Positions 3,060 through 31,401 of a stretch of 64,000 nt of DNA are shown piece by piece. Location: positions 46,838 through 110,837 of the IMG/VR virus record IMGVR_UViG_2706795428_000001. The stretch is one strand, 5' to 3'. The number at the start of each line of letters is the position of its first letter. Position 1 is the first letter of the stretch. This DNA is from a virus. The notes below the pieces were generated by a model, which worked only from the letters and a program-made list of their open reading frames with translations, was not told the DNA's origin and made no database searches. A program made the translations under genes and the position numbers.

Positions 3060-4068
3060 TTGAGCACAGTTCCTTGTAAGTGTTATAATCCTCAAGAAGT
3101 TCTTGATCGTGAACCAATCTAAAGATGCGATCGTAATTCCAGGTAGTATCTCTGAATACTCGACCATCAATACCATTTTCTGCTGAATTAAGACATTCTT
3201 GAATATCGATGCAGATATCATGGTCTTCTTTTGTAACTACTTCAAAACCATCTAATCCTGTTTCAGCAAGATCGTATCCATCACTCCAATCAAGACGATT
3301 TGCTTGAAGATAATGTGCAAGACGAAGGTATTTGTTAGATGAAAGAATTTTTTCAAAAATATCACGTTCATGAGTATCAAAAGGAAGTTTATACTTCACT
3401 TTCATTGTAGAGACAAACAATTCTTTTTTGTTTTGTTTCTCTGCATCGGCCTTTATTTTAGCCTCTTCTGCAATTCGCTTTCGTTCTTGTTCAACATAAG
3501 CAGTAATTGCTTTCTTTCGAGATTCAATATTCTTTACAATTGAATCATAAGAGAAATCTGTAGTCTTGATATTACGATTGATATCTTCGAGATATCCAGC
3601 ATTCTTTGATTGAACTTTTGGATTTCTTGCTCGAGAATTAGGATCTCTCCAAGAATAGGAAGCAGGAAATCCAATAGCAGTCATGAAAGCTTTCACATGT
3701 TGAATAACCTTTTGGTTATGTGAAATGATTTTAAGATTCTTTACGCGAACATCGGCCAGAGACTTAACATATTCATCAAGCTTGGTAATGAATTCATCGC
3801 GTTGTTTTTCAAGAGCTTCAACTGAACCATAGGTTCTTCCGTAATCATAATAGGAAACTGAACTACGACCACTAGGATATTTGAAAAGTTCTTCAATACG
3901 CCAATTTCCAAGACCATTCTGCATGTCTGGATAAGCAATCAAAGGCTTGTATGGCGAATTATCCGTTTCCGCTTTCAACCTCATTGAATTGTAAAGTTCT
4001 TCTACTTCGAAAAGATAATACTTGATCTTTTCTTCAGCTTTGAATTGATTATACGGATTCTTCGTCAT
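3049..4068 (-). CDS. hypothetical phage protein with coiled coil
   Basis: 339-aa ORF. Confidence 0.65.
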   Translation of the reverse strand: MTKNPYNQFKAEEKIKYYLFEVEELYNSMRLKAETDNSPYKPLIAYPDMQNGLGNWRIEELFKYPSGRSSVSYYDYGRTYGSVEALEKQRDEFITKLDEYVKSLADVRVKNLKIISHNQKVIQHVKAFMTAIGFPASYSWRDPNSRARNPKVQSKNAGYLEDINRNIKTTDFSYDSIVKNIESRKKAITAYVEQERKRIAEEAKIKADAEKQNKKELFVSTMKVKYKLPFDTHERDIFEKILSSNKYLRLAHYLQANRLDWSDGYDLAETGLDGFEVVTKEDHDICIDIQECLNSAENGIDGRVFRDTTWNYDRIFRLVHDQELLEDYNTYKELCSNGY

Positions 4069-4087
4069 TACAATTATTCCTTTGTTT

Positions 4088-4276
4088 TCAAATACCGATT
4101 CTTGATCGTTCTTCAGGACTCATTTTTTCGTAAACCTGAACATCAGTTGTTCCGAGTAAATATTTCACAAATTCATCATGAAGTAGTTCAGCAAGTTCAT
4201 AATCAGGAACATTACATTTTGCATCAATAGAATGATAATTTAAACTATGAGTCAAAGCTTCTTTAAAAACTGACAT
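4088..4276 (-). CDS. hypothetical protein
   Basis: Small ORF with SD (AAGGAA). Confidence 0.5.
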   Translation of the reverse strand: MSVFKEALTHSLNYHSIDAKCNVPDYELAELLHDEFVKYLLGTTDVQVYEKMSPEERSRIGI

Positions 4277-4280
4277 CGAT

Positions 4281-4700
4281 TTATTCCTTTGTTTTCAAAA
4301 CACTATTGATCTTATCATTAATCTTTTTGATTTCATTACGGTAGATCAACCAAATTACAGTAGGATCAACAGAAAGAGTTCCTGGAGATAATCCACGAGT
4401 CTTTTCGACTAGATCGTCGAGAGTGCTGCCGCAAATAATTTGAGATTTCAAAACGTTCGCGAAATGAGTGTATTTGCTCGGGAGAAATGCTTTACCACCA
4501 TTTTCCATCATGTTCTGAACAGTTCGTTTCGTTCGACCCGTTTGGCGTTTTGAATTTTCAAGGGCATCCAAAGTCAAATCAAGGTTTTTGAAAATTTGAT
4601 CATTGTAATCTTCTGCTTCAGAAGATTTACGTTCCCAAATGACTTTACCGCCCATAAGGATTTCATCTACACCTTCTGGAACAATATAAGAATTTTTCAT
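4281..4700 (-). CDS. hypothetical protein
   Basis: ORF, ATGA-coupled. Confidence 0.55.
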   Translation of the reverse strand: MKNSYIVPEGVDEILMGGKVIWERKSSEAEDYNDQIFKNLDLTLDALENSKRQTGRTKRTVQNMMENGGKAFLPSKYTHFANVLKSQIICGSTLDDLVEKTRGLSPGTLSVDPTVIWLIYRNEIKKINDKINSVLKTKE

Positions 4701-4954
4701 TTCGATACCTCATACAATTCTTCATTAACAATTTTCACAACTCTTCCAGAGTAATTTAATTTACCTTCTCTCGAAGAATATCCATCTGGAGCAAGGTAAA
4801 CATCTTTTCCGTCAATTCTTGAAACTGTTCGAACTTCGATGTAAGGAGCTCTTCCGCTCATTGCTGCTCGAAAGACTTTATCACCAGGAGCAAGTGTTCG
4901 TCGGAAAAGATCTTTACCATCATTGGCTTGATTTCGTTTCCAATCTCCACTCAT
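4697..4954 (-). CDS. hypothetical protein (SH3-like beta barrel possible)
   Basis: ORF, coupled to the kinase stop. Confidence 0.5.
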   Translation of the reverse strand: MSGDWKRNQANDGKDLFRRTLAPGDKVFRAAMSGRAPYIEVRTVSRIDGKDVYLAPDGYSSREGKLNYSGRVVKIVNEELYEVSK

Positions 4955-5496
4955 TTCAGTTTACTTCTCATAAGTTCGACAATTTTCTGAGTATCTTCTG
5001 ATGTCTCATGTTCAACTGTTTCAACATAATCCATCAAAACGAAATTTTTGCAAATGCCTGCAATTTTTGTTTCGCGACCATTGAGAAACTGTTCTGATTG
5101 ATCGTCATTACGTTTCTTATGACGAATTGAAATTGTTCTTGGGTCAGCTACTACATTCAGAATTGTAAAATCAGTATCATCAAGTTCAGCAATCCATTCG
5201 AACATGCTCTGATTTCCGATGCGATCTCCTTCAAAGAAGAAATTGACATCAGAAGCTTCTTCGATGAATTCTTTACAATGAGGTTGAGTGTTCAATCCAA
5301 GACGATCTGTCCCCGGGAACACTTCACCATCTTCATACTTGCCAATAATAACAGCATTCAACTTCTTGGAATAATGATGAGCAACATTCTTTCGAGGAAC
5401 AAGTTCCCAATCATCAGTAAGTTTCATGAACTCTTTAAAGATGGTTGATTTCCCGACAGCAGGAAGGCCGATCATTGCTACGATTGCTCTACTCAT
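4951..5496 (-). CDS. P-loop kinase of the type found in phage thymidine-hypermodification loci
   Basis: Walker A GLPAVGKST, GTDRL and FFEGDR motifs; likely start MSRAIV at 5496 (ATGA overlap). Confidence 0.75.
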   Translation of the reverse strand: MSRAIVAMIGLPAVGKSTIFKEFMKLTDDWELVPRKNVAHHYSKKLNAVIIGKYEDGEVFPGTDRLGLNTQPHCKEFIEEASDVNFFFEGDRIGNQSMFEWIAELDDTDFTILNVVADPRTISIRHKKRNDDQSEQFLNGRETKIAGICKNFVLMDYVETVEHETSEDTQKIVELMRSKLK

Positions 5497-5885
5497 AGTG
5501 CACCATATTGTGAACGTGTAGAAGGTCGAATATTTTTCAATTGAACAACAGTATGTTTCTGGGAAGTTGCAAGATTTACACCATCCCATTCAACAAGAGC
5601 CTTTTCTTCTCCTTGGAGAATGAATAGAATTTTGCCACGTTTTCCTGGAGTTGTCAGAGAATCGACGATATTATTGACTTTGAAATCATACTTGATTTCT
5701 TTTACTGGAATATTATTGTCGAAGAAAGCAACATCAGAAATACCTGCGAATTGAACGTAAGTTCGAGTTGGACCAGTAGAATACTTGCCACTTTTCTCAA
5801 TTCGAACAACTTTTGCTTCGACAACTACGATGTCACCTTCTTTTGCATCACCAACTGTGAGCTGTTTCAGACCTTGAATTGCCAT
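5493..5885 (-). CDS. hypothetical protein
   Basis: ORF in the operon. Confidence 0.55.
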   Translation of the reverse strand: MAIQGLKQLTVGDAKEGDIVVVEAKVVRIEKSGKYSTGPTRTYVQFAGISDVAFFDNNIPVKEIKYDFKVNNIVDSLTTPGKRGKILFILQGEEKALVEWDGVNLATSQKHTVVQLKNIRPSTRSQYGAL

Positions 5886-6070
5886 TACCGAATAGTCTCC
5901 AAAATTTGAAGTGTTTTTAGAATTTCTTTTTGTTCCTCTTGAAGATATTCAAGAGATAGAAGAGCATTCTCATATTGTCGTTTTAAGGTATCGATTGACA
6001 TCTTTGTATCAGTAATAACCTTTCGATTACATTCAAGTCGACCATGAAGAACTTTGGCTACTTTATCCAT
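5885..6070 (-). CDS. small coiled-coil hypothetical protein
   Basis: TAATG-coupled ORF. Confidence 0.5.
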   Translation of the reverse strand: MDKVAKVLHGRLECNRKVITDTKMSIDTLKRQYENALLSLEYLQEEQKEILKTLQILETIR

Positions 6071-6315
6071 TACCGAAATTTCTCCATAGCAGTTTCAAAT
6101 TCAACTCGTTGAGCACGAGCTTTCGCAACATCTTCAAGAAGTCCCGCAAGTTCTTTATTTTTCTTGACGAGTTCGTTGCGAAGTTCTACTTCAACTTCAT
6201 TGAGATTTCGAAGACAGTCTTCGAGGTATTGTTTAATTTTCTTTGGAAATACTCGATATTGACCAATTGTTGTAAGATTTTCTTGCATAATACTATCGTT
6301 CTCCTTGTCGAACAT
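6070..6315 (-). CDS. small coiled-coil hypothetical protein
   Basis: TAATG-coupled ORF. Confidence 0.5.
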   Translation of the reverse strand: MFDKENDSIMQENLTTIGQYRVFPKKIKQYLEDCLRNLNEVEVELRNELVKKNKELAGLLEDVAKARAQRVEFETAMEKFR

Positions 6316-6682
6316 TTTCTAATTCGATTTCATTTTTGTGATTGATTCGAATGACTTTGATTTCAGGAACCATCTTTTCGATGATCTCTTCCTGAATTGG
6401 ATCGTCTTCGAAGTGATACACTACGTCATATCCATTTCGAAGTAAATAGATAATTGTATTTGCCTTATGAATTCCTGAAGATTCTCGAGTCTTTTTGTGA
6501 AATGGAATAGGATTGAAAAATACTCGATTATGAATGCCTCTTTCATGAAGCATTTCAAGAGTTTCATCTGCTTCTTCGAAAGATCTTCCAGTGATGATGA
6601 AGTCATTTGGTCTTGGTGTGCATCCTGGTAGATCTTCTCCAAGGAAAATCACACCATCGATATCCCATGTTGCGATTTTCAT
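6293..6682 (-). CDS. capless HAD-superfamily phosphatase
   Basis: Motif I WDIDGV, motif II IITGR, motif III K, motif IV FEDD. Confidence 0.8.
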   Translation of the reverse strand: MKIATWDIDGVIFLGEDLPGCTPRPNDFIITGRSFEEADETLEMLHERGIHNRVFFNPIPFHKKTRESSGIHKANTIIYLLRNGYDVVYHFEDDPIQEEIIEKMVPEIKVIRINHKNEIELENVRQGER

Positions 6683-6799
6683 TCTGTATCTTCTTCCGAT
6701 TCAGGGTATTCTTCAATCATCTTTTCGACAATTTCACGAGGATACCAATCTCCTTTGAACCATCGGTAGTCCTCATATTCTTTTACTGGTTTGGACATT

Positions 6800-7267
6800 T
6801 TATGAACTCCAGCTGTATTCGTTTTCACCGTCTTTACTGATTCCTACATCTGGAGAAAGAAATGGAATTTTCTTGAAATTTGAAAAGACGTGTGAGAATT
6901 TTTCACCGAATGGAGTAAATCTAAACTGTTCTCCACCAGCAACCCATACATCTTCAAAAAGAACTACCCAAAGAGAATCATAAAAATTTTGCCACCAATT
7001 ATCATCTGGTTGTTCAGAAGGATCTTTACTCCATTCATAGTTATCGAAATAATCCGATTTGAAAACGATATATGCAGTCAACCCAGATTCGTTTTCAATG
7101 TAGACTCTTGTAACATTTTGGCTACAGAATCCCACGTTGAATTCATGATCAAATGTTAGAATATCATCAATTTCTGGATGATGCCAATGATGATGAATAT
7201 TATCGAACCAATAATCAATCAGTAATGGTTCGATATCGATGTTAATAAAACCTTCTGGAAATTTCAA
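6800..7267 (-). CDS. hypothetical protein (Trp/Asp/His-rich)
   Basis: ORF with SD GGAG upstream of a TTG start. Confidence 0.5.
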   Translation of the reverse strand: MKFPEGFINIDIEPLLIDYWFDNIHHHWHHPEIDDILTFDHEFNVGFCSQNVTRVYIENESGLTAYIVFKSDYFDNYEWSKDPSEQPDDNWWQNFYDSLWVVLFEDVWVAGGEQFRFTPFGEKFSHVFSNFKKIPFLSPDVGISKDGENEYSWSS

Positions 7268-7286
7268 AATTATCTCCTAATAGAGG

Positions 7287-7329
7287 GTTTCTGGTCTGTT
7301 TGCGGAAAATATGGAAACAGACCAGAAAC
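7287..7329. repeat. perfect 15-bp inverted repeat downstream of the INO1 gene
   Basis: GTTTCTGGTCTGTTT-N13-AAACAGACCAGAAAC; no U-tract on either side. Confidence 0.85.
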
Positions 7330-7370
7330 GATGCGATTCAAATCACAAAGAATTAAAGTTGTTACTAAAC

Positions 7371-8552
7371 TCAGAGAATGAATGTAGAAACAAATTTACC
7401 ATCTTCGCGTCGAACATAATCGTGAGGAATTTCACGTCGGGCTAGAATTTCACATTCTGTTCGAGCATCCTTTGTGAACATATCAACCGGAGGAGTTTTT
7501 TTCGTTGCAGCGCTGGGACCAACAATAGGACCAACAATACCAATTTCTTGAGCAACTTTCAAGAAACGGATAGCATCAATGGCGACCCCCGCAGAATTGG
7601 GACTATCAATACATGAAAGATCGGCAGTAAATTCAAAAGGCGCTCTACCAAAGATCGTCCCTTTGATAAGCCAATGAGCTCGTTTATTATCCTTTAGTGC
7701 TGGGAAATATTTTGCTGGACCTGCAGCAATTGTATTTGGTTTGGTTTCTTTACCAACCAAATCATTCTGTTTACGAATTACATTTTCTTTTGAAATTTTC
7801 TTCGAAGCTAGCCTATCAGGATTTTGCATTTGCTTGAAATCCATGTTGCCTCCAACATTATCCTGATAATGGACATCAATATCTGCTCCTCTTGCTAGGA
7901 AACATTCTTGTAGAACAGCAGAAATAATACTTGCTCCAATTGTTGAACGGACATCATCTCCAATAATAGTAACATTATTATCGGCAAATTTCTTTGCCCA
8001 TACCTTATCGGAAGCAATGAAACATGGAATACAGTTTACAACGTTTACATTTGCATTTAGACAAACATTCATCCAAAATTCTGTAGCATCTTGAGAGCCG
8101 ACAGGAAGATAGTTCATTAAAATATCGACTTGATTGTCTCGTAGATATTGAGCAAAATATTCAACATTCGCATCAACATCTTGTTCTACTGGAACAAACA
8201 TTTCTGAATCATTTACATCTGTCCCCCAAACTGGTGTATCTACACCATCAAGACGAGGACCTTGTTGAACAATAGGAAATTGTTTTTCAAGCTTAGAAAT
8301 ATTGTAAAGATCAATTGTATTATTCGGGAGTGAATGTAGAGCGACATTTAGAGGTTTACCAACTTTTCGTTGATCAACATCAAAGGCTGCAACAAATTCA
8401 ACGTTTTCAGGAGTATATCCTCCGATATTATCCATCATCAAATTCATTGTATCAAAATCAAATGCTCCTGCTTTAAATCCTTCGATACCTTGAACAAGAG
8501 CCGATGCACAATTTCCACACCCCACTAGAGCTACGCGAATTTTCTTAACCAT
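7371..8552 (-). CDS. ino1: L-myo-inositol-1-phosphate synthase (bacterial/archaeal type)
   Basis: Rossmann motif VGCGNCAS, FVAAFDVD..KVG, NYLPVGSQ.A, IIGDDVRSTIGA, GGNMDF, SKKISK, DSPNSAG. Confidence 0.9.
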   Translation of the reverse strand: MVKKIRVALVGCGNCASALVQGIEGFKAGAFDFDTMNLMMDNIGGYTPENVEFVAAFDVDQRKVGKPLNVALHSLPNNTIDLYNISKLEKQFPIVQQGPRLDGVDTPVWGTDVNDSEMFVPVEQDVDANVEYFAQYLRDNQVDILMNYLPVGSQDATEFWMNVCLNANVNVVNCIPCFIASDKVWAKKFADNNVTIIGDDVRSTIGASIISAVLQECFLARGADIDVHYQDNVGGNMDFKQMQNPDRLASKKISKENVIRKQNDLVGKETKPNTIAAGPAKYFPALKDNKRAHWLIKGTIFGRAPFEFTADLSCIDSPNSAGVAIDAIRFLKVAQEIGIVGPIVGPSAATKKTPPVDMFTKDARTECEILARREIPHDYVRREDGKFVSTFIL

Positions 8553-8645
8553 TACCTTAAAGTTCCTTTGTTATTTCAGTTGTTTCGGGAAACATTTCCC
8601 AGGCAGATTGATCCGGAATTGGAAGTAGCTGCCGAAAGAAGAAAA

Positions 8646-8674
8646 GAGTTTACCTCAAAGATTGAAGAAAGTAA
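8646..8674 (-). promoter_or_regulatory. early-type sigma70-like promoter for ino1
   Basis: Minus strand TTTACT-N17-TAAACT, followed by an ~85-nt leader with GGCAG/CTGCC and GGGAA/TTCCC stems. Confidence 0.6.
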
Positions 8675-8680
8675 ACTCTC

Positions 8681-9592
8681 CTAGAACAATTTAGAAAGAT
8701 CAGAAATCGGATCTTCAATATCTGGATGTTCCTGAAAATATTCTTTCCAAGAAACACGATCAAATGGTCGAATCTTTGAAATCGAAGTGATAGATTTCAA
8801 TTTGACTTCAGTCATTCCAGTATGCTTGACAAGTTTCGGTTCAGAGCAATACTTTCGAACGAGCTCGTCTTTTGCATAGACTTCTTCAGCAACATTCATC
8901 ATGAAAGCATTTCGATCATCTCCACCACGATCACCAGAAGATTGCATTCCTCCTGGATTCATTCCAGTGGAAGTTTTGAATCCTCCCCAATGATAGATAA
9001 CAATTCCTCCAGCTTTGTCGATGTAACGGCAAGTTCTCACAATGTCGTCCAAATGAGCAGTATAGATCTTGACAAAGTCAGGATCGTTTCTTGCACCCCA
9101 TGATCCACCAGGGAGATTGTATGGTCTGAATTCTTTCCAAGGTTTTCCTTGAAGATAGAAATCATTTTTGTAATAAGAGAATGAAAATGCTGTATTCAAT
9201 CCGAGTTCGTCAAGAGTCTTGAATCCGTCTTGAATGTATGCTTCAAGATTTGTAGATTTTGCGATGAAATTTGTTTTTGATGGAGTAGGATTGAACTCAA
9301 AAAATTCTTCAAGATCATCATCTAAAAAGAAAATTTTCTGATTGATTGGAAAGAAATCAGAAATGAAATGAACGATTTCTTTCCCGCCTTTTACTCCAAC
9401 AACAATCTCTTTATATGGATTGTCCCCCAGTGATTCTCGATATTCTTTCTTTTCTTCTTCATTCGCAACAAAGATGTAAAGCTTTTCAGAAAGATCGATA
9501 TGTTGTTTCGAGAGCATTGTGTAAGTTTTATCTCGAAACTGCATAGCTCGTTGATAAGATCTTACGGCAATAACATAATCATCAATATTCAT
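8681..9592 (-). CDS. TET/JBP-associated glycosyltransferase (TAGT/GREB1-like, GT-A fold)
   Basis: IAVRSYQRA N-terminus, FFLDDDL (DxD), C-terminal GGMQS..R; ATGA-coupled to the upstream aGPT-PPlase. Confidence 0.75.
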   Translation of the reverse strand: MNIDDYVIAVRSYQRAMQFRDKTYTMLSKQHIDLSEKLYIFVANEEEKKEYRESLGDNPYKEIVVGVKGGKEIVHFISDFFPINQKIFFLDDDLEEFFEFNPTPSKTNFIAKSTNLEAYIQDGFKTLDELGLNTAFSFSYYKNDFYLQGKPWKEFRPYNLPGGSWGARNDPDFVKIYTAHLDDIVRTCRYIDKAGGIVIYHWGGFKTSTGMNPGGMQSSGDRGGDDRNAFMMNVAEEVYAKDELVRKYCSEPKLVKHTGMTEVKLKSITSISKIRPFDRVSWKEYFQEHPDIEDPISDLSKLF

Positions 9593-10818
9593 AATACTTT
9601 GAACCATTTGTCTGTTTCTTGAAGTTCTTTTTGGAAATCAGATGATGTCGGAACAACCAATCCATCATCTTCCCAAATCTCTTTCACTTTATAATCAAAA
9701 GGATTCTCAAGTAAAGTCTCGAAACCATTTGGCATGTCTGGAAAAAGTTCATGCATATTCATAAGTTCGCCAGTGACCCCAAAGACTGAATCATACCACG
9801 AAGGAAAAACTGCACCTTTGATCAATCCTGGTTGATTTCTCAAAGCGCTTCTAAACGGCTTCCAGTCAATTTCGGGCCAATGTTCACGATAGTAAAGATA
9901 TCTTGATGTAGCATCACTCGAAGCATGCCCAGGCATTTCTCCTGAAGACCCATCAGGGGCAAACATTCGTTTGTACTGACAATAGATCGATTCTTTTCTG
10001 AATGAATCAATTCTGAAACCGGAGAATTCTTCTGCGATTGAAGTATATTCTAAAAGAGCGTCTTTAGCCCATTCAACATCTTTCTGAACAACTTGATAAT
10101 CTCCATACTTTCCAATCATCTTTTCAGGTTGATTTGTAAGAGCACAAAGACCATTCCAAATTGATCCAAGAGATGAATCGTTATTTGGAGAATATCCATC
10201 CAACATAATATCTTCTGGATCGATTGGAAGTTCAAGCAAATCATGAAGACATTGCATTAGAAGCCATCCAGTCATTCGACCGAATTTATGAAGTGTCTGA
10301 ATTTCTCTATAAAGAAGCCAGAAATTTTCTCTTTGACTTGACCCCACAAGGATTGAATCGAATTTATCTTTGAAAGAACTTTTTCCAAGCCAATTCTTGA
10401 CACTCTGAACTTGGCTAACCCAATGACCTTTGTTGTATCGAGCATCTGTTCCGTAAGTTGTTCTTTTCCAATTATTCGCATGCCATTTTTCCAATTCATT
10501 CATATTGATTGCATGAAAGTCTGGAAAGGTTTCAGTATATGCAAAAGCTTGAGGAGTTCTGTAAGTCATTCCAAAACAGAATGCAAACCATGCCTTTTGT
10601 TCAAAGTCATAATCTTTACAGAGATACTTGTAGTAATGAATATGATCCAGGTCATGCGTCAGGACTCTCCAATTGAAATATCGATTGAAAAGTTCTTGAC
10701 GTTTGCCTGGAGATTTCCATTCTTGAGTTGATTCTTCAATTCCAAAGAATCGTTTGTCCGCCTCTTGACTTGCTTTGTATTGCAGAAGCTTTTCAGAAAG
10801 TTTTGATTGTTTGGCCAT
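9589..10818 (-). CDS. aGPT-PPlase clade-2-like (amino acid:DNA transferase family) hypermodification enzyme
   Basis: AWFAFCFGMTYR, FGRMTGWLLMQCL (HhH-like) and ESIYCQYKRMF motifs. Confidence 0.75.
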   Translation of the reverse strand: MAKQSKLSEKLLQYKASQEADKRFFGIEESTQEWKSPGKRQELFNRYFNWRVLTHDLDHIHYYKYLCKDYDFEQKAWFAFCFGMTYRTPQAFAYTETFPDFHAINMNELEKWHANNWKRTTYGTDARYNKGHWVSQVQSVKNWLGKSSFKDKFDSILVGSSQRENFWLLYREIQTLHKFGRMTGWLLMQCLHDLLELPIDPEDIMLDGYSPNNDSSLGSIWNGLCALTNQPEKMIGKYGDYQVVQKDVEWAKDALLEYTSIAEEFSGFRIDSFRKESIYCQYKRMFAPDGSSGEMPGHASSDATSRYLYYREHWPEIDWKPFRSALRNQPGLIKGAVFPSWYDSVFGVTGELMNMHELFPDMPNGFETLLENPFDYKVKEIWEDDGLVVPTSSDFQKELQETDKWFKVL

Positions 10819-11125
10819 TCATTTCTCCATCAAAGTAATGCAAATACTTTTTACCTTTTGAAGATATATGCCAAGTTGTAGTATAACAATGAAAAGTTTG
10901 CCGCATTCTTTTAGAATAGAAAGTCTTTCCAGTGTAATGTTTCTTCTGGTATACATATGGTTTCATAAATCCGAGATATCCGGCAACCGAATTACGAGGA
11001 ACATTCCACCAACCAAGAAGATCTTCTAATACTTGCGAAATCTGTTTAGAAGAAAGATTTACATTTAAATGTTTAGCCGCAAGTAGAACTCTTAGAATTT
11101 GTCTTTGATTGTTATTCATTGTCAA
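10793..11125 (-). CDS. small basic protein, possible winged HTH
   Basis: Helical pattern LSSKQISQVLEDLL...RNSVAGYL then beta hairpin. Confidence 0.4.
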   Translation of the reverse strand: MTMNNNQRQILRVLLAAKHLNVNLSSKQISQVLEDLLGWWNVPRNSVAGYLGFMKPYVYQKKHYTGKTFYSKRMRQTFHCYTTTWHISSKGKKYLHYFDGEMNGQTIKTF

Positions 11126-11649
11126 TCAATTGCAGGAATTGGAGAAACAATCTTTTTAGCAGAATACTCAACTGGAACAGTGAATTGCTTTTCAAGAATT
11201 TGATATTTCGGCATTTGAGGATCTTGCCACATTGCAACAGTTGTTTTTGGAATTTTTGGGCGATCATCTTTACCAATACCACGAATTGCGTAAGTAAAAA
11301 GAACGAATGCATTCCATGCAACAGCAATCATGTGATGTGAACCGGTCTCGACATCATAGTCCTCGCCAGATTTCCATGCCTGAAGATGTCGTTCTAGAGA
11401 AGCACAACATTTTCCCCAGTCCATCCCTCTTTCCCAGTTACGGTCGGCATACTTTTTGGCGCCAATTTCGAAATGTCTACCGAGAGCCAACATTGCTTCT
11501 GGAGGAATGAGGTCCATTCGCGGTTTACCTTCATTATAACGAAGGGCTCCGTTATCTACTACAGTAGCGTTCTGATTCCTAGACATAATCACTTTATCTT
11601 CAATATCAACATCTTTTTCTTCATCATCGTAATATTTGTATGCGCTCAT
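11122..11649 (-). CDS. dATP/dGTP diphosphohydrolase domain protein (DUF5664)
   Basis: RYNEGKPRMDLIP...GAKKYADRNWERG...ASLERHL...HHMIAVAWNA. Confidence 0.85.
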   Translation of the reverse strand: MSAYKYYDDEEKDVDIEDKVIMSRNQNATVVDNGALRYNEGKPRMDLIPPEAMLALGRHFEIGAKKYADRNWERGMDWGKCCASLERHLQAWKSGEDYDVETGSHHMIAVAWNAFVLFTYAIRGIGKDDRPKIPKTTVAMWQDPQMPKYQILEKQFTVPVEYSAKKIVSPIPAID

Positions 11650-11827
11650 TTCTACCTCGTATATTTGATCATATCGTTAATTGCGATTTCCATTGAAGAT
11701 TCAGAGGATAGTGGTGAAATCCAGAAAGAGTTATCATCATTTAGACCAAAGTCATGAATGATCTTATCTCCTCTCATTCTATCAAGGAAATCCCAAGCAT
11801 CATCCAGAAATTGTTTTTCTACGATGA

Positions 11828-12070
11828 TCATGAAATAATTTCTCGTACAGTCAATTCTTTGCTGAAAAACTTTTTACGAGAGACTTTCATATAATACGTA
11901 GCATATGTATTCGCAGAATGAATTAATTCGGAATCATATACCCAAAATCGTTTTGAATGCTTCCATTTTAATTTACCTGCTGCTAATTTGACAGCATTTT
12001 CTTTTGTTTCTGCTTCAAATGTTAATGTAGCTTCCGGATAATAATCAGGAAATACTTTAAACTGCTTCAT
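11828..12070 (-). CDS. hypothetical protein
   Basis: Coupled ORF. Confidence 0.5.
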   Translation of the reverse strand: MKQFKVFPDYYPEATLTFEAETKENAVKLAAGKLKWKHSKRFWVYDSELIHSANTYATYYMKVSRKKFFSKELTVREIIS

Positions 12071-12516
12071 TCACCACACCCATTTTGTTTATCAAATTGC
12101 CCCCAATGAACAAATCCTTGAGGGCAAGCAAAACCCCATTCTCGAATTCTTGGTCCAGTCACGAAAATGGTTGTGCAAGGTTCTCGATCAGGGTATCCGA
12201 CCATTGAACCATCATTTTGTTTGACCCACTTCGTGAGAAGTTGAACACGATGCCAAGCTTCTCCGAAACGGAAATAACAATTTCCTCGTTTTCGAATGAA
12301 TTTTCCTTTTGGGGTATGTTCAATATAATTGCCTTTGATTAGAATAGAAAGGCAAAACAACCACGGATGACTATGAAGCGCTCTATCTTCATCTGAACGC
12401 AGAAACTTATGAAGATAGATGTTAAAGAAAGGATTTCGGGGAATGACCCACCACCTTAACAGGTACGGGTCTTCATTTCCTCCAATGACTACATCTGGTT
12501 TTCGTTTGAATACCAT
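12067..12516 (-). CDS. cupin-fold (cysteine-dioxygenase-like) protein
   Basis: LHSHPW...GNYIE...WHRV metal-binding pattern, TIFVTGP..REWGF; TGATG-coupled to the TET/JBP gene. Confidence 0.7.
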   Translation of the reverse strand: MVFKRKPDVVIGGNEDPYLLRWWVIPRNPFFNIYLHKFLRSDEDRALHSHPWLFCLSILIKGNYIEHTPKGKFIRKRGNCYFRFGEAWHRVQLLTKWVKQNDGSMVGYPDREPCTTIFVTGPRIREWGFACPQGFVHWGQFDKQNGCGE

Positions 12517-13844
12517 CAGAACAACGTAGCTCCTGTTTGAGGGTATGCTTCTGGATGATATTGAAGAACGACATCTTTTCCAAGTTTTGATTCTAGGTAA
12601 TCATACCATGCTTGTTCAGTAAACATTCCTGGCGTGACGCCATTGAACAAATTTCGCCCTTCCGAAAGAATTGGATCTTTCTTTCGTTCTTCTACATACT
12701 GAAATTTTACTTGATTGTATTCGTAAGAACCGGTTCCAATCAAATCTTCACGGAAATACGCAACAACACTACAACGATTTCCAATGATTGGAGTATTTCC
12801 GTGAATGATATTATGATTTGCAATCAGAAGAAGATCACCAGGACGAATATTAACGCATGCTCGATATTCTGGAAATACTAGATATCCGCCTTCAAAATCT
12901 GATTCACCATCAGTCAGTACTGAAAGATTGGAAAATCCTGCTTCCAGATCACCATCATCCAAATGGTATCCAGTGCGGAAATTTTTGTTCACAGTAATTG
13001 TGCTGAATACTGTTCCGGGAACAACGAATTCAGGAGCAACTTTCTTACATGCTTCATTTTGATTATTCCATCGTTTTGGAAGGAACTCTTTGAAAGCATT
13101 AGAAAGTTTCTGAAGATACGGAAAAGCTTGTTCAAACTCTTCAGGGTTATTTCGATTGAATGCTGCAAGACGAGCATAAGGGTATCGTGGATAAGGTGGT
13201 TGCGAACCGGCAACTCCAGAGTTCACAGGAGAAGCATAAGTCGAGATTGAAATATATTTTTTCTCTACAAATTCTGCTTCTTTCTTGCGTTCTTCTACAG
13301 AAAGTTTCCGTACTCTTTCCAACCATTCAGAGAATTTGAAATTATCATTTCGAGTTGCATGATACAGCCACATGCATCCTCTTGAACTGTTTTTGTCGCC
13401 ATCTTTGTATTTCTCAAAGATTTCTTCGATTGGATCAAATCCTGGAAGAGGTTGAGCACCTTTTTTGAATAGATTGATAATATCCCATTCTTTTGCAGTA
13501 ACCCAATCTCTATTGCCGACTTTTTCGACTTTTGGTCCTGCAGCCAAGCCACGATTATTTGAAGGGACATCGGCTGCGCGATTTAATCCTCGATATGCGC
13601 CAAGTTGTTCTTCTTTTGTGAAGTAATTTTTCCTGAAAACCAAACCAATTCTTGCTTCATCAATCGCTTGGGGACATGACGCACAATCTTGATTACATTC
13701 AAGCATATCTGAAACAAAGCAATCAGGCTTCGTATAGAAATTGGTATCAGAATCAATAATCACATCATAATGCGAATCTTCCGCAAACTGCCCCAGAAGA
13801 TGCTGACAATCAATCTTTTCTTTAGCAACAATAACATTAACCAT
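12516..13844 (-). CDS. TET/JBP-family 2OG-Fe(II) dioxygenase
   Basis: TITVNKNFRTGYHLD (HxD), GGYLVFPEY, IHGNTPI (distal His), RCSVVAYFRE (2OG-binding Arg). Confidence 0.85.
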   Translation of the reverse strand: MVNVIVAKEKIDCQHLLGQFAEDSHYDVIIDSDTNFYTKPDCFVSDMLECNQDCASCPQAIDEARIGLVFRKNYFTKEEQLGAYRGLNRAADVPSNNRGLAAGPKVEKVGNRDWVTAKEWDIINLFKKGAQPLPGFDPIEEIFEKYKDGDKNSSRGCMWLYHATRNDNFKFSEWLERVRKLSVEERKKEAEFVEKKYISISTYASPVNSGVAGSQPPYPRYPYARLAAFNRNNPEEFEQAFPYLQKLSNAFKEFLPKRWNNQNEACKKVAPEFVVPGTVFSTITVNKNFRTGYHLDDGDLEAGFSNLSVLTDGESDFEGGYLVFPEYRACVNIRPGDLLLIANHNIIHGNTPIIGNRCSVVAYFREDLIGTGSYEYNQVKFQYVEERKKDPILSEGRNLFNGVTPGMFTEQAWYDYLESKLGKDVVLQYHPEAYPQTGATLF

Positions 13845-25085: not shown

Positions 25086-25934
25086 ATGGATCAATATTCT
25101 GTGAAAGGGATCAATAGAATGCTAACTTTTCATGAAGCTGCAATTTCTTATGTTGAACATGGAGGAGAAGAACGATACCTTCGAAAACTCATCGAACATT
25201 TTGGAAATCAAGATGTTTCAAAGATCACTCCAATGGCTGTCAGGAATTCAGTGAAAATCATCTTTCCGAATTCTTCTCCGGCAACTCACAATCGTCAAGT
25301 CATCACTCCAATGAGAGCAGTCTTGTATCATGCCCATGAAATGGGTTGGAGAATGCCTGCAAAAATCAAATCATTCTACGCTCCGAAAACCAAATTGACA
25401 ATTCCTGCAAATCGAAAATGGTTAGAAACTTTCATTGATCAATGCGACAAAGATGAATTACCTCATTTGGCAGCTTGCGTTCTTTTCATGAATCTTACCG
25501 GAGCAAGAGTTTCAGAGGCTGTTAATTTTCTTGGAAAGCATATCAACTTAAGAGAACGTAAAGCAATTCTTATTAAAACAAAAACCGATTTCAATAGTAT
25601 TCGGTATCTCCCTGATCACTTGGTCGAACGATTAAGAGATTTGAACATTGGCCCCGAGGATCGTGCTTTCAAATACAAATGTCGTTTCAGCGTCAATGAA
25701 AGAATTGGAGCAGTTTGTAATCGGGCCGGAATTCAATACAAATCATCTCATACTGTTGGAAGACATTCTTTCGCGACAAATGCTTTGAATGCTGGAGTCA
25801 GTGTTCGAGTCGCAATGGATGCCGGTGGTTGGAAATCTTCTTCAATCTTTCTTGAAACATATTCGCATAGTATGGATGCTGGTAAAAGAGTCGCAGATAT
25901 TTTCAATCTTATTCATCAAAAAGATCAAGAATGA
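25086..25934 (+). CDS. tyrosine recombinase (XerC-like, no arm-binding domain)
   Basis: TGARVSE (R), KTK (K), HTVGRH (HxxR-type), GGWKS (W), TYSH (Y). Confidence 0.92.
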   Translation: MDQYSVKGINRMLTFHEAAISYVEHGGEERYLRKLIEHFGNQDVSKITPMAVRNSVKIIFPNSSPATHNRQVITPMRAVLYHAHEMGWRMPAKIKSFYAPKTKLTIPANRKWLETFIDQCDKDELPHLAACVLFMNLTGARVSEAVNFLGKHINLRERKAILIKTKTDFNSIRYLPDHLVERLRDLNIGPEDRAFKYKCRFSVNERIGAVCNRAGIQYKSSHTVGRHSFATNALNAGVSVRVAMDAGGWKSSSIFLETYSHSMDAGKRVADIFNLIHQKDQE

Positions 25935-25983
25935 GGAGAGAGTTTTTTGTTTACCCTCCCCTCACTTGATGTGGGGTGGAGGA

Positions 25984-27504
25984 TCACCAGGTCGAGACGT
26001 TACCCATACGCGCCCCGCGATCCGGCCAGCAGTCGCGCAGGTAAATCGCCGAGCCAGAACCGGATGTCATGTAGGCGTAGGAGCCAGGTGACATTTGCGG
26101 CGTCCGCACACGGAAGAGGAAGAACTGTGCGTCGTCGTCAGCCCGAAACGCGGTCGGGGGCGTCGTCCCTGCAAACCGGCGGTCACCTCGGTCGTGCGCC
26201 ATCGTGCCTGCGAAAATGCCCTTGGACGAGTCGATCGAGCGCACGCAGCCGCCACCCGAATCTCGATAGTCGCCCGCATAGTCGGCGGTGATGACGTCCT
26301 CATGACCAGTGTGGGCGTTGGCCGAGAGGGGGTTGGAAAGGCCAGCAGCGTTCACCGTGACGCCGTTTTTTCGGCCGACGCAATTCACGAACAGCGCGCG
26401 AGTTTTGACGCCCAGTCCGAGCTGCCAGCGCTGATTATGGATGTTCTGGTGGTCCGTTTTGGACCTGCCGAAAAAGCAATCTTCAAACCACGCGAGGCCG
26501 TGAAGCGCATCAACAGTGACCGCTCGGCCCGTCCCCGTGGTCAAAAAGCCGTATCCATGGAACCGAACACCCCTCACCGCCACGCAACGCGGCGTCACGT
26601 TTGTATCACTGGTCGGGACCACATAATCAAAAGGCCCGTTGCCGCCCCCGCCGCCCTCCAAGATCATCACGTCGCCAGAGGTGGCTGGCCCCATACCGAT
26701 CGAGATGTTCTTGCCGGCGTGGAAGTTCCGAACACGCTGGATTACGCGCGTGTTTGCGATAGTGACCGCAGAATTGTCGGCGCGACGCACGAGGGTGGTG
26801 GTTCCGTCCGTCGTCCAGCACCCAGGCGGGATGTCACCGCTGGCAACCCACGGGACATACTGGAACGGCGTCAACATGCCGTCCTCATCCACGTTGAGGC
26901 GGTCGAGGGCGTTGTCTGCCGTTGTCACCGCGCAAGCGTAAGTAAAGCTTGCGCCAGTGTGTAGCGACGGGGTTGAGAAATCAACGTGAGAGCCGACGAT
27001 CAGCAGCCCGCCATAGAACTCAAACCATATATCGACCGTGGGGTCGTAGGTCGTGCTCGATGAGCCGTTCGCGAAGTTCTTGCTCTTAGGTAGCTCGATG
27101 CTCGCGCCCTGTCCACCCTTGATGCGGATTTTTGCGGGCTGACCTGTCGCGTTGGCGGCCAGGATCGCCTTCCCGATGGTCTGCCAAGCCGTGCCCTCGG
27201 TCAGCCCGTTGCCCGTCGTGTCGTTTCCACTGGTCGGATCAACCACGAACGTGTTGACAGGAGCCGAGCGGGCTGTAGAGAATAGATCGAAAATCTGCTC
27301 GGCCGTGTAGTTGCAATGGGCATAAGCTCGACTGTCAGACCCCTTGTCTTCCAGTCTGCCCAAGAAATCATTCGGCAGAAAAAACTCAGAGCGTGGAATT
27401 GAACTCGGAAAAGGGATGTCGATCAGCGCTTGCCCTGGTGTAGCCAGGCCATTGACGGCATCGCGAAGTTCGCCGCCGTTGTAGGTTGTGCCGAGCAGGG
27501 TCAT
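25984..27504 (-). CDS. GC-rich, horizontally acquired right-handed beta-helix (pectin-lyase-like, tailspike/depolymerase-like) protein
   Basis: FVVDPTSGNDTTGNGLT...AWQTIGKAI N-terminal motif and beta-helix-like repeats; GC ~60% by eye against an AT-rich background. Confidence 0.6.
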   Translation of the reverse strand: MTLLGTTYNGGELRDAVNGLATPGQALIDIPFPSSIPRSEFFLPNDFLGRLEDKGSDSRAYAHCNYTAEQIFDLFSTARSAPVNTFVVDPTSGNDTTGNGLTEGTAWQTIGKAILAANATGQPAKIRIKGGQGASIELPKSKNFANGSSSTTYDPTVDIWFEFYGGLLIVGSHVDFSTPSLHTGASFTYACAVTTADNALDRLNVDEDGMLTPFQYVPWVASGDIPPGCWTTDGTTTLVRRADNSAVTIANTRVIQRVRNFHAGKNISIGMGPATSGDVMILEGGGGGNGPFDYVVPTSDTNVTPRCVAVRGVRFHGYGFLTTGTGRAVTVDALHGLAWFEDCFFGRSKTDHQNIHNQRWQLGLGVKTRALFVNCVGRKNGVTVNAAGLSNPLSANAHTGHEDVITADYAGDYRDSGGGCVRSIDSSKGIFAGTMAHDRGDRRFAGTTPPTAFRADDDAQFFLFRVRTPQMSPGSYAYMTSGSGSAIYLRDCWPDRGARMGNVSTW

Positions 27505-27704
27505 GCGGCCCTCGTGTCGATGAATTGCGTGGTGGAACCGATGACGCGGGTCAGGGCGATGACCGTGAAGTCGTAGATGACCCCCTCACCCTTAATAAGG
27601 GTGAGGGGATAACCCAAAGATTTCAGCGAAGCTGGAGACCCAACAAGACCCAGAGATTTTGGTAAAGCAAGCATTAAAACTCCCAAAAGAAATTTGTAAA
27701 ACAT
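27501..27704 (-). CDS. chimeric small ORF spanning the AT/GC junction
   Basis: AT-rich hydrophobic N-half joined to a GC-rich C-half; stop overlaps the ATG of the beta-helix gene. Confidence 0.5.
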   Translation of the reverse strand: MFYKFLLGVLMLALPKSLGLVGSPASLKSLGYPLTLIKGEGVIYDFTVIALTRVIGSTTQFIDTRAA

Positions 27705-27714
27705 TCATCAAAAA

Positions 27715-27722
27715 TATTTATA
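27715..27722 (-). promoter_or_regulatory. T4-type late promoter TATAAATA
   Basis: Exact TATAAATA on the minus strand just upstream of the chimeric ORF. Confidence 0.65.
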
Positions 27723-27879
27723 ACGTATTAATTCTTCACGTTTTATCAAAATATGACTTTATTCTTTAAAGAATTGAAGGTCTTATTTTATTAAATTTCA
27801 TGAATTTCTTCAAAATGACGATTAGCTCATAAACCCTTACTCAAACATATTTATTTGTCCGAAAAATCACGTTTAGGGA

Positions 27880-27908
27880 TTTACTTTCATATTAGATCGT
27901 TTTAAAGT
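27880..27908 (+). promoter_or_regulatory. early promoter
   Basis: TTTACT-N17-TAAAGT followed by the shared leader and AAGGAGAAAT. Confidence 0.7.
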
Positions 27909-27945
27909 TCATCATAAGGTTTGAACGAAGCAAGGAGAAATTCAA

Positions 27946-28153
27946 ATGTCTGCCAAGCAAATCAATTTCATTCGCTTGACATCCCCCTACTGGTGAACAA
28001 ACTTCTTGGATCCCTTTCGAATGGGATGGCAATCTTTCGCTTTATTTCGTATATGGTCGAAAGAATTGGACGACGGAAGTTATCGACTGGTTCGATGATG
28101 CGGTCAATGTTCATCGTTATCTTGAAAAGAACCACCCTGAAGTAGAATTTTAA
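27946..28153 (+). CDS. small early protein, interrupted by a +1 C in a homopolymer
   Basis: MSAKQINFIRLTS then PTGEQTSW...EVEF in the +1 frame after CCCCC 27983-27987. Confidence 0.5.
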
Positions 28154-28566
28154 ATTGAAGAACGGTTTGTAGAACTTCCAGATTAAGGAGGAGTGGTACA
28201 TGTTTACTCAAAAAGAATGGGAAGAATATCAATTTCTAAAGATGGCAATTCAACATGTTATTGAGGAAGGTTCTGGAACTAAACGGTATTCTTCAGGCAA
28301 TGATTATGTGATTGTTGGTAGAGAACGTTTTATGGAATTGATTATTCTAGAAGAAAAAATTAAAAACATTTAATATAATTTTTGTAACTTTCTGCTTTAC
28401 AAAAAATCTGAAGTCTGTATAATAGAGCGTAGCGATTTCGCCTTTCAAAAGGCTTCAGACTTTTGAAAGCCTTTACTTACTTTCAAGTCTTTTCTTACAA
28501 AGTTGTAATGGCTTTCTTCAGTCACTTCGTTCCTTCAGAAAGTGTTGCTTTCCAAAGCATCAAACT

Positions 28567-29704: not shown

Positions 29705-29948
29705 AAAACTTAGAGTTTATGCAGTAACGGAAACCCTTCCAAAACAAAAGGGTTATCTTGATAACGAAAAGATTCGTAAACAGTATCTCCAAAAGAAAGG
29801 TTTATTTGGTTGGATTACCATTGATGAAGAAACTGTTCCGGATTGGGCAGTGATTAGTCTTGGATGTTTCGGTGATACTGGTGGATGGGTTTCGAAATTT
29901 GCAAAGTATGGTTCTTTTGGTAGAGACGGACTGATTACTTCAAAGTAA
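29697..29948 (+). CDS. early hypothetical protein
   Basis: Coupled ORF. Confidence 0.55.
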   Translation: MNEKLRVYAVTETLPKQKGYLDNEKIRKQYLQKKGLFGWITIDEETVPDWAVISLGCFGDTGGWVSKFAKYGSFGRDGLITSK

Positions 29949-31401
29949 TTCTATACATCTTGTAATTGAATTTCTCTTCGATGTAGATTTTGATTCTTTC
30001 AATGAGATGGTTCAGAGTATGATTCTTTGAACCTTTCCATGAAAGATCGTCTGCAATGTCAAAGAAAGTCGATGAAGTCTTTCCGGAAGCCAATCGAAGA
30101 GCTCGACCAATCGATTGAAGATTGATGATCTTTCCTTTGTTTGGATGAGCCGAAATAAGATTGTGGAGTTTCTTTGTATTCGATCCCGTCGACATTGTCC
30201 CTTTCGACCCGACAATGATTGCATCATCTTCTTCTTCGATGATCTTTCGAATGTACTCACGATCCTCTTTCTCAGTTCCTCCATTAACGAAGTAAACGTT
30301 TCGCCCTTCTTTCACAGAAGATTTGAGTTGCTCATAGAGATATTTCCCATGATCATTGATTCTGAAAAGGATTAGAGAGTTTCCTTGAAGAGACAATCCA
30401 AGATTGACAATGAATTTGTTTCTTGATGGAGAATTGATAAGAAACTTGATTTCATCTTGATAGGTTTTTTTGTGAAGAGCTTTCCTTGATTCTTCAGGAT
30501 GTTCGAGGACAAGGCATTTGATTTTTAAATCAGCGACAAATCCCTGATCCATTAACTCGGCAGTCGTGATGACTTTGTGAATCTTTCCGAACATTCCTGT
30601 CAGGGCCATTTCGGAAGTTTTGGAATCTGTCAAAGTGCCAGTCAAACCAAAACGATTTGGAGCTTCAAGGCATTTGTCCATGGTTGAAGTGATTGATTTC
30701 GCTTCTCCAAGATGAACTTCATCAACCATGACAAGCTGATATTGATCGAAGTAATACTTGTCTTGTTTCACTAGAGAATGATACGTCGAAATTGTGATAT
30801 CGACTTCGGCAGATTTCGCAACTCCTGAAGTGATTTGATGAATTCTTTCCTTGTATCCATAGTCTCTGAAATCTCCAGACATCTGAGCGACCAGAGCAAT
30901 GGTTGGAACAATGACAAGACATTTTGAACCCATTACATCGATGTAATAGCGACAAATCAAATATTGTAGAAGACTTTTGCCCGAACTTGTTGGGGCAAGT
31001 TGAATAGATCTTCCTTCGCGAATACATGTCACAAAAGCTTTGATTTGATAATCTCTTGGAGTATATTTCTCAGGAATGTTTAGAGTCTTGATGAAATCTT
31101 CTGCTTCTTTTACAGAAAATTCTGTATATCCAAAAGAACCATCTTGAGAGATTGAATAATCTCTATTCTTTGCAAATTTCAGAACTTCATGAATAAGTCC
31201 TGCTCGAATTGTATGATCCTTGAGCCGAAATTCGTAAAGTTTACCATTCCATCCACGATATTTGTATGCAGGACTCCAAGCATAGTTGGGAGCAAAATAT
31301 GAGAAATGTTCATGGAGTTCTTGAGCAATTCCTTGATCACAATCAATGATTGCATGAACATTATTGAGTTTGCGAATATGAATATCAGATGTTTGCGGCA
31401 T
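29935..31401 (-). CDS. uvsW: UvsW SF2 DNA helicase
   Basis: PRDYQ, APTSSGKS, VDEVH, GLTGT, QSIGRALR. Confidence 0.95.
   Translation of the reverse strand: MPQTSDIHIRKLNNVHAIIDCDQGIAQELHEHFSYFAPNYAWSPAYKYRGWNGKLYEFRLKDHTIRAGLIHEVLKFAKNRDYSISQDGSFGYTEFSVKEAEDFIKTLNIPEKYTPRDYQIKAFVTCIREGRSIQLAPTSSGKSLLQYLICRYYIDVMGSKCLVIVPTIALVAQMSGDFRDYGYKERIHQITSGVAKSAEVDITISTYHSLVKQDKYYFDQYQLVMVDEVHLGEAKSITSTMDKCLEAPNRFGLTGTLTDSKTSEMALTGMFGKIHKVITTAELMDQGFVADLKIKCLVLEHPEESRKALHKKTYQDEIKFLINSPSRNKFIVNLGLSLQGNSLILFRINDHGKYLYEQLKSSVKEGRNVYFVNGGTEKEDREYIRKIIEEEDDAIIVGSKGTMSTGSNTKKLHNLISAHPNKGKIINLQSIGRALRLASGKTSSTFFDIADDLSWKGSKNHTLNHLIERIKIYIEEKFNYKMYRITLK

Follow-up and report, generated by a model that had tools for sequence, protein, structure and literature searches.

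How does a gene that is compositionally foreign come to lie, intact and between two similar repeat sites, beside a recombinase gene in the genome of a T4-like phage? The question is raised by a single 155,997-bp virus record (37.8% GC), of which positions 46838-110837 (the whole stretch of 64,000 nucleotides that was analyzed, called the window here) contain a short tyrosine recombinase gene that converges on a GC-rich hydrolase gene. A preliminary description of this DNA had proposed an integron-like locus at which the recombinase captures or exchanges genes. On balance, we favor the view that the locus is a phage-borne gene-capture socket run by the short tyrosine recombinase. Capture is thus the part of the earlier proposal that is supported, while the integron serves only as an analogy, failing on the integrase model, on the attC signature and on arrays of cassettes. 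The parts of the locus, in window coordinates, are as follows.

25086-25934, plus strand: short tyrosine recombinase of 282 amino acids (aa), with PF00589 and PHROG integrase matches and the catalytic residues.
25954-25982, plus strand: recombinase-proximal junction site, an imperfect inverted repeat consisting of a C-rich arm, a TTGAT-type spacer and a G-rich arm.
25984-27504, minus strand: cargo hydrolase, intact, 506 aa, ~60% GC, phrog_16653.
27501-27674, minus strand: small 57-aa open reading frame (ORF) across the junction, with homologous ORFs in the related locus L007 and in seven GC-rich loci (see below).
27582-27608, no strand assigned: leader-proximal site at the junction, formed by a perfect 13+13 palindrome; it agrees at 18 of 22 positions with a tRNA-Thr(GGU) anticodon arm, of which it is a mimic.
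27582-27694, minus strand: leader of 113 nt that contains an ATG and a ribosome-binding site, GGGAG; a 95% identical copy lies at genome 33622-33734.
27715-27722, minus strand: TATAAATA, the consensus of T4 late promoters, ~20 nt ahead of the leader.

The hydrolase ORF is held in a block of 57-66% GC whose edges are sharp, near 25950 and 27610, and whose flanks have 30-40% GC. The preliminary description had the recombinase ending about 20 bp from the left hairpin and convergent with a foreign gene, and both statements are accurate: 20 bp separate the end of the stop codon, at 25934, from the start of the inverted repeat, at 25954-25955, and the recombinase-proximal site sits between the stop codons of the two converging genes. 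The recombinase belongs to the tyrosine recombinase superfamily (PF00589, E 3e-15, 56.7 bits compared to the Pfam cut-off of 27.1) and matches a PHROG integrase family (E 4e-30). The complete catalytic set reported earlier was recovered (R141, K166, H222, R226, W249 and Y259), and these residues, together with H227, are invariant in all 62 aligned relatives; the catalytic histidine lies four residues ahead of the arginine (HxxxR) instead of in the canonical HxxR arrangement. The ATG at 25119 is the likely start of the protein, judging from the L007 ortholog, which begins there.

What adjoins this recombinase differs between relatives. The preliminary description had named variable cargo at the same site in related phages as the comparison to make, and such variability was observed. 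L007, a 5.7-kb IMG/VR contig whose backbone is not that of the window (47-50% GC, with genes for ribonucleotide reductase and lysis), encodes a recombinase that is 71% identical to that of the window in a gene of 41% GC. Convergent with it is a cassette of 62% GC that specifies a different enzyme, a 387-aa SGNH/GDSL esterase matching PHROG tail proteins; its borders carry the same motifs as those in the window, and a small ORF crosses the upstream border in frame. In a tree, the window and L007 recombinases form a pair (support 99/94) that is sister to 17 cassette-linked recombinases from GC-rich DNA (100/98 for all 19), named members of this sister clade being Caulobacter sp. X, Brevundimonas subvibrioides and B. 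bacteroides.

Seven GC-rich loci were compared for layout (L003, L005, L009, L011, L012, L014 and L040), and their genes follow one order: a tail-fiber-like gene, a small ORF with a site, a variable enzyme gene, a second site and the recombinase. The small ORF is translationally coupled and, as in L007, has 39-51 aa and is homologous to that of the window, with the G-rich site at the same KGxGV/TGVGV codons; the enzyme gene varies, often encoding GDSL/SGNH proteins of differing architecture, and is followed after its stop codon by the C-rich site. Cargo replacement can be read directly from L011 and L012, whose recombinases are nearly identical and whose flanks are ~91% identical. Identity between these two loci ends right after the upstream site and returns at the cargo stop codon and the downstream site, and the 1258 and 1310 nt between the sites are unrelated DNA. 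In four other GC-rich pairs, DNA-level alignment is restricted to the site and the recombinase.

By sequence, the border sites resemble the attachment (att) core of the recombinase's own lineage. By tblastn, the phiU integrase (Rhizobium phage) matches at 54% identity over 71% of the query, and integrases of Nostoc, Rhizobium and Bradyrhizobium phages match at 36-48%. The phiU record (AB004561) annotates a 44-nt 'core sequence for lysogenization' ~30 nt past the integrase stop codon, and this core starts with CCTTGGTAAGGGTGAGG. In the clade with 43-53% identity, over 26 loci from metagenomes and viruses have the same core string ~100 nt downstream of their integrase, and in a Rhizobium genome ARAGORN places it within tRNA-Thr(GGT), from the anticodon loop onward. 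In the tree, a long and well-supported branch of 0.66 divides the 19 cassette-linked recombinases from the clades tied to this tRNA-Thr core; on that placement, the window recombinase is a relative of the phiU-type tRNA-Thr integrases and not a member of the group.

We scanned the whole phage genome with a 22-nt query made up of the tRNA-Thr anticodon arm and variable loop. The four best matches (3-6 mismatches) are the two leader-proximal palindromes, the next best having 7 mismatches, and the four observed matches compare with 0.075 expected from shuffles that keep local composition. Differences between the leader-proximal sites and the arm are confined to the central pair of anticodon bases and the final pair of bases; tRNA-Ile(GAU) probably fits this arm as well. 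Only the strict 22-mer test is significant; a looser regular expression, whose matches are not rare (6 observed versus 3.3 in shuffles), was set aside. No similarity to a T-arm or acceptor follows the leader-proximal site, which indicates that the sites are mimics of the arm rather than tRNA fragments or a tRNA-restoring attP.

The likeness to phiU-type integrases is partial. These proteins are 46-54% identical and similarly short, their site also lies just downstream of the gene, and their att core opens with the same anticodon-arm sequence; in the window, by contrast, the anticodon arm stands alone (18 of 22 positions) instead of the 44-nt tRNA 3' half, and the sites flank foreign cargo within the phage genome. 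Mimicry of a tRNA anticodon arm, and relatives that integrate into tRNA-Thr, could be taken to mean that the enzyme is an integrase of lysogeny or pseudolysogeny, with a tRNA-Thr (or tRNA-Ile-like) gene of the host as the insertion site of the T4-like phage. We consider this highly improbable, given that the site does not have the T-arm and acceptor part that phiU-type attP uses to restore the tRNA, that two central anticodon positions deviate from the tRNA, and that the sites are paired around foreign cargo, twice. Nor did a repressor or excisionase turn up, though neither was searched for, and a tRNA scan found no tRNA close to the locus.

Proviruses of the GC-rich clade bear on the same issue. 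Three members are IMG/VR proviruses. The cargo and recombinase are still adjacent in all three, so integration into the chromosome did not use that site. Two of the three (G003 and G004) carry a second tyrosine integrase that is longer, in one case at the provirus edge; scanning the provirus ends for tRNAs did not reveal where the att sites of lysogeny lie. The absence of the tRNA 3' half from the sites and the second integrase in two proviruses both support the earlier suggestion that the recombinase acts in capture rather than in lysogeny.

The borders seen in the window occur a second time in this genome. A second GC-rich cassette, at genome 33.7-35.9 kb and thus 38 kb upstream of the window locus, encodes a 303-aa protein of no known function and a 394-aa GH39/GH5-like glycosidase. 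Its leader, the 95% identical copy of window 27582-27694, has the same terminal palindrome; the likeness of the two leaders ends directly after this palindrome, and the whole genome holds just these two leader copies. At the other border, the sole sequence common to the two cassettes is an exact 13-nt match, TCCCCTCACTTGA. Neither at the second cassette nor elsewhere in the genome was a second recombinase or a remnant of one found, and any action on the second cassette would consequently be in trans.

These observations also bear on another history, in which the integrase, attP and last tail gene of a temperate phage were gained once, as one fragment, and are now inactive. Temperate phage genomes commonly end in a convergent integrase-att-tail-enzyme order, and the relatives of the recombinase are prophage integrases. 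We nevertheless judge a dead relic improbable. The recombinase genes of the window and L007 have ~39-41% GC compared to 60-62% for their cargo, which implies that the two were not acquired together; the same recombinase lineage has different cargo in L007; the second cassette has the same borders and no recombinase; and the catalytic residues are intact in a low-GC lineage that is old and conserved. A further recombinase, P0017, encoded on a 2-kb contig, is 82% identical to that of the window and has a low-GC-type amino-acid composition. With ~39% GC, the window recombinase gene looks long resident in low-GC phage DNA, while the cargo has retained its GC bias and so would be a recent arrival.

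The cargo itself points to host surfaces. The window hydrolase matches phrog_16653 'hydrolase' (E 3e-199), is 27-36% identical to hydrolase or minor tail proteins of Arthrobacter, Gordonia, Rhodococcus and Bradyrhizobium phages, and is aligned over its full length by metagenomic homologs at 44-53% identity; it is likely a polysaccharide depolymerase or tail enzyme. Its nearest homolog, P0002 (577 aa), has a ~75-aa N-terminal extension that is missing from the window protein. Three independent cargos are found at these borders (a beta-helix-type hydrolase, the glycosidase cassette and the esterase), all of them predicted to be carbohydrate-active enzymes, which fits adaptation to host capsule, exopolysaccharide or lipopolysaccharide and would make host range the trait affected. 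In C. crescentus, the capsule is known to block Caulobacter phage phiCr30 (PMC4241560).

Each cargo is joined to a small leader ORF. The 57-aa ORF of the window begins in the leader, reads through the palindrome and ends with a stop codon that overlaps the hydrolase ATG, so that its N-terminal half comes from the low-GC leader and its C-terminal 27 codons from the GC-rich cargo. PHROG searches with the small ORFs returned nothing. In L011 (6375-7706), no stop codon separates the leader peptide from the SGNH enzyme, the two forming one continuous reading frame, and hence the N-terminus of the small ORF can serve as the N-terminus of a cargo protein. The abrupt shifts in composition at the junctions might be taken for assembly chimeras, but that the GC-rich blocks are such artifacts is hardly credible: the reading frame of the small ORF continues across the junction in three cassettes, the same architecture occurs twice in this genome and again in independent assemblies, and the cargo ORFs, which are uninterrupted, are coupled to the leader ORF.

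Upstream of each leader lies a promoter-like motif. TATAAATA has two copies in the 156-kb genome (~13 expected per strand), each just upstream of a leader. TAAGTA, usually preceded by A/T/C and T, is 13-fold enriched 20-40 nt upstream of structural-gene starts (for example at window 54418, 56866, 67382 and 71909, minus strand), and is probably the late-promoter core of this phage in place of TATAAATA. As a general late promoter of the phage, TATAAATA was rejected on these grounds, with two occurrences and an upstream motif of the phage's own. The leader promoter may be used, and late expression of the leader unit is plausible; the unit may itself be foreign to this phage. Window 27705-28566, upstream of the leader, is ~860 bp of AT-rich DNA in which all ORFs have at most 77 aa. 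Several matches to sigma-70-like promoters occur there, along with a single terminator-like hairpin (28442-28469).

From these features we infer recombination at the border sites, and the simplest scheme for the socket that accommodates them all is the following. The recombinase would derive from phiU-type integrases that target tRNA-Thr, a branch of which would have been converted into a cassette-exchange enzyme. It would recognize duplex anticodon-arm-like sites made up of a C-rich arm, a ~7-bp spacer and a G-rich arm, one of which would be embedded in the small translationally coupled leader ORF downstream of the promoter. DNA that is doubly flanked by such a site, or a putative circular intermediate with one, would be recombined in through catalysis by this enzyme, leaving a hybrid site at each side of the cargo, which would then be expressed via the leader ORF. 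Likely donors would be resident GC-rich prophages of Caulobacterales-like hosts that have the same module, and the recombinase would serve the second socket, 38 kb off, in trans.

All asymmetric sites share one polarity, read in the direction of the recombinase, and in L003, L014, L040 and L005 the cargo-side arms covary perfectly. The right palindrome (27582-27608, perfect 13-nt arms) folds at -14.1 kcal/mol (z -6.6), the left inverted repeat more weakly at -8.1 kcal/mol (z -1.9), and the stem-loops at the sites are not followed by a T tail. Hairpin folding was rejected as a universal property of the sites, three of the six junction sites being no better than shuffles.

Several observations weigh against a recombinase-driven socket. 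Low-GC examples number three, the two cassettes of this genome and L007, and no excised circle, empty site or enzyme activity is among the observations. Strong folding is limited to the two leader-proximal sites, and the sites that fold like shuffles are the recombinase-side border of the second cassette and both L007 sites; an integron-style folded single-strand substrate is accordingly unlikely. Tyrosine recombinases normally require identical overlap regions, and the spacers at the two borders of each cassette differ, which may reflect drift or crossover points placed wrongly in our scheme. The arm covariation derives from three sequence variants with low-complexity arms and is suggestive at this size. 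In the GC-rich clade, the tail-fiber-like gene upstream is mosaic without any such site, meaning that ordinary recombination also shuffles the region. A third GC-rich island, at genome 8201-9101 (L002 ~3200-4100, up to 63% GC), has no such sites; with no hairpin or att-like borders, it indicates that foreign GC-rich DNA also enters the genome by another route. The minus-strand ORFs of that island, of 136, 66 and ~70 aa, have no known function.

The last two of these points lead to the main rival, in which modules are swapped by homologous or microhomology recombination at a short conserved leader and 3' stem-loop while the recombinase is a bystander. A precedent exists in the PeSL elements of T4-type phages, early promoter-terminator units that are present in many copies and act without a dedicated recombinase (PMC2839356, PMC4122927). 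Like these, the window locus has a promoter and stem-loop unit beside variable genes in a T4-like genome, marking breakpoints of insertion or replacement; the leader is a conserved island amid variable segments, ~8-14 nt are common to donor and recipient at the borders, and both the tail-fiber-like gene upstream and the site-free island show that exchange proceeds elsewhere without such sites. It departs from PeSL elements in that its leader unit is present just twice, its promoter motif is of late type, its leader is coding, and the recombinase next to it belongs to a lineage whose att core the sites copy. We hold swapping of this kind to be unlikely, although it deserves more weight than the relic, because the borders copy specifically the att core of the neighboring recombinase's lineage, the adjacency of recombinase and site is kept in unrelated backbones where nothing else aligns, the leader has two copies and no dispersed family, and the flanking homology between a low-GC phage and a GC-rich donor is too short for ordinary homologous exchange.

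If a recombinase-run socket is accepted, how close is it to an integron? Phage genomes with parts of classical IntI/attC integrons are on record (Qi et al. 2023, PMC9892861). As in integrons, a tyrosine recombinase adjoins a recombination site, inverted-repeat sites bound the cargo, cargo is exchanged between relatives, and expression is from a resident promoter and leader, the cargo apparently having no promoter of its own (none was specifically sought within it). The enzyme, however, is not IntI: the integron-integrase model TIGR02249 gave 20.8 bits for the window protein and 26.3 bits for that of L007 compared to a cut-off of 265, with alignment limited to the C-terminal 50-60 residues in both. 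None of the six junction sites has attC boxes (GTTRRRY/RYYYAAC), and folding is not conserved. Further departures from integrons are that each socket holds one cassette and no array, that the second socket has no recombinase, that the promoter-proximal site is the one distant from the recombinase, and that the cargo consists of large enzyme genes (1.2-2.2 kb) bearing the tail of the upstream ORF.

A different comparison is offered by the invertible segments of Mu Gin and P1 Cin and the R64 Rci shufflon, in which resident segments are inverted between inverted sites. The window locus would resemble these systems in dedicating a site-specific recombinase to the variation of a host-recognition gene; it differs in that one polarity is common to its sites and in its cargo, which has a foreign composition and comes from outside.

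A more far-reaching proposal, to which we give a little less than even credence, is that a second, dedicated recombinase belongs both to a virulent T4-like phage and to an entire clade of Caulobacterales phages, and that this enzyme serves solely to plug depolymerase or esterase genes into a pre-wired expression socket at a tRNA-anticodon-arm mimic. By the same proposal, held just as tentatively, the genes come from co-resident phages or prophages, and the module is a trans-acting host-range exchanger independent of both integrons and lysogeny. Phage host-range genes are known to be mosaic, and their exchange is mostly ascribed to homologous recombination. In a limited literature search, we found no description of a recombinase-linked depolymerase socket. 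If true, the proposal would mean a defined, programmable import of surface-degrading enzymes from prophages, even by strictly lytic phages; it would account for un-ameliorated GC-rich genes in AT-rich phage genomes and provide a case of a lysogeny integrase re-used for gene capture. The module could also become a tool for swapping receptor-binding enzymes in phages of harmless laboratory hosts; Caulobacter and Brevundimonas, in which relatives reside, are organisms kept in laboratories.

Relatives of the low-GC locus were sought in several collections. The protein-based metagenome scan for the recombinase yielded 56 loci, every one of them GC-rich, and a scan of genome contigs, which used poor N-terminal patterns, returned only Rhizobiaceae integrases of 31-37% identity. 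Nothing was recovered by a low-GC-biased DNA pattern for the recombinase in metagenomes, by megablast of the locus against the phage collection, by gp55-based and hydrolase-based searches for relatives in viral contigs, or by exact leader and palindrome patterns in viral contigs. An Rfam search gave one sub-threshold match only, which we regard as chance.

T4-type core genes surround the window locus. Upstream are gp46/gp47-like nuclease genes and a gp55 late sigma factor gene (phrog_234, E 3e-49), and a downstream ORF (29935-31401) has helicase-type motifs and was judged UvsW-like by eye. Lastly, two features of the GC-rich loci may be recorded. In L005 (provirus G002, 3675-13077), an HTVC010P-like podovirus, the terminase gene stands on one side of the cassette and recombinase and the portal gene on the other, an unusual position for an integrase. 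In L003, L010, L014, L034 and L040-L042, a divergent small gene, with no counterpart at the window locus, stands between the 3' site and the recombinase; its ribbon-helix-helix-like product starts MGRP..LNVK, includes ..RSDFIR.A, and could be a regulator or directionality factor.

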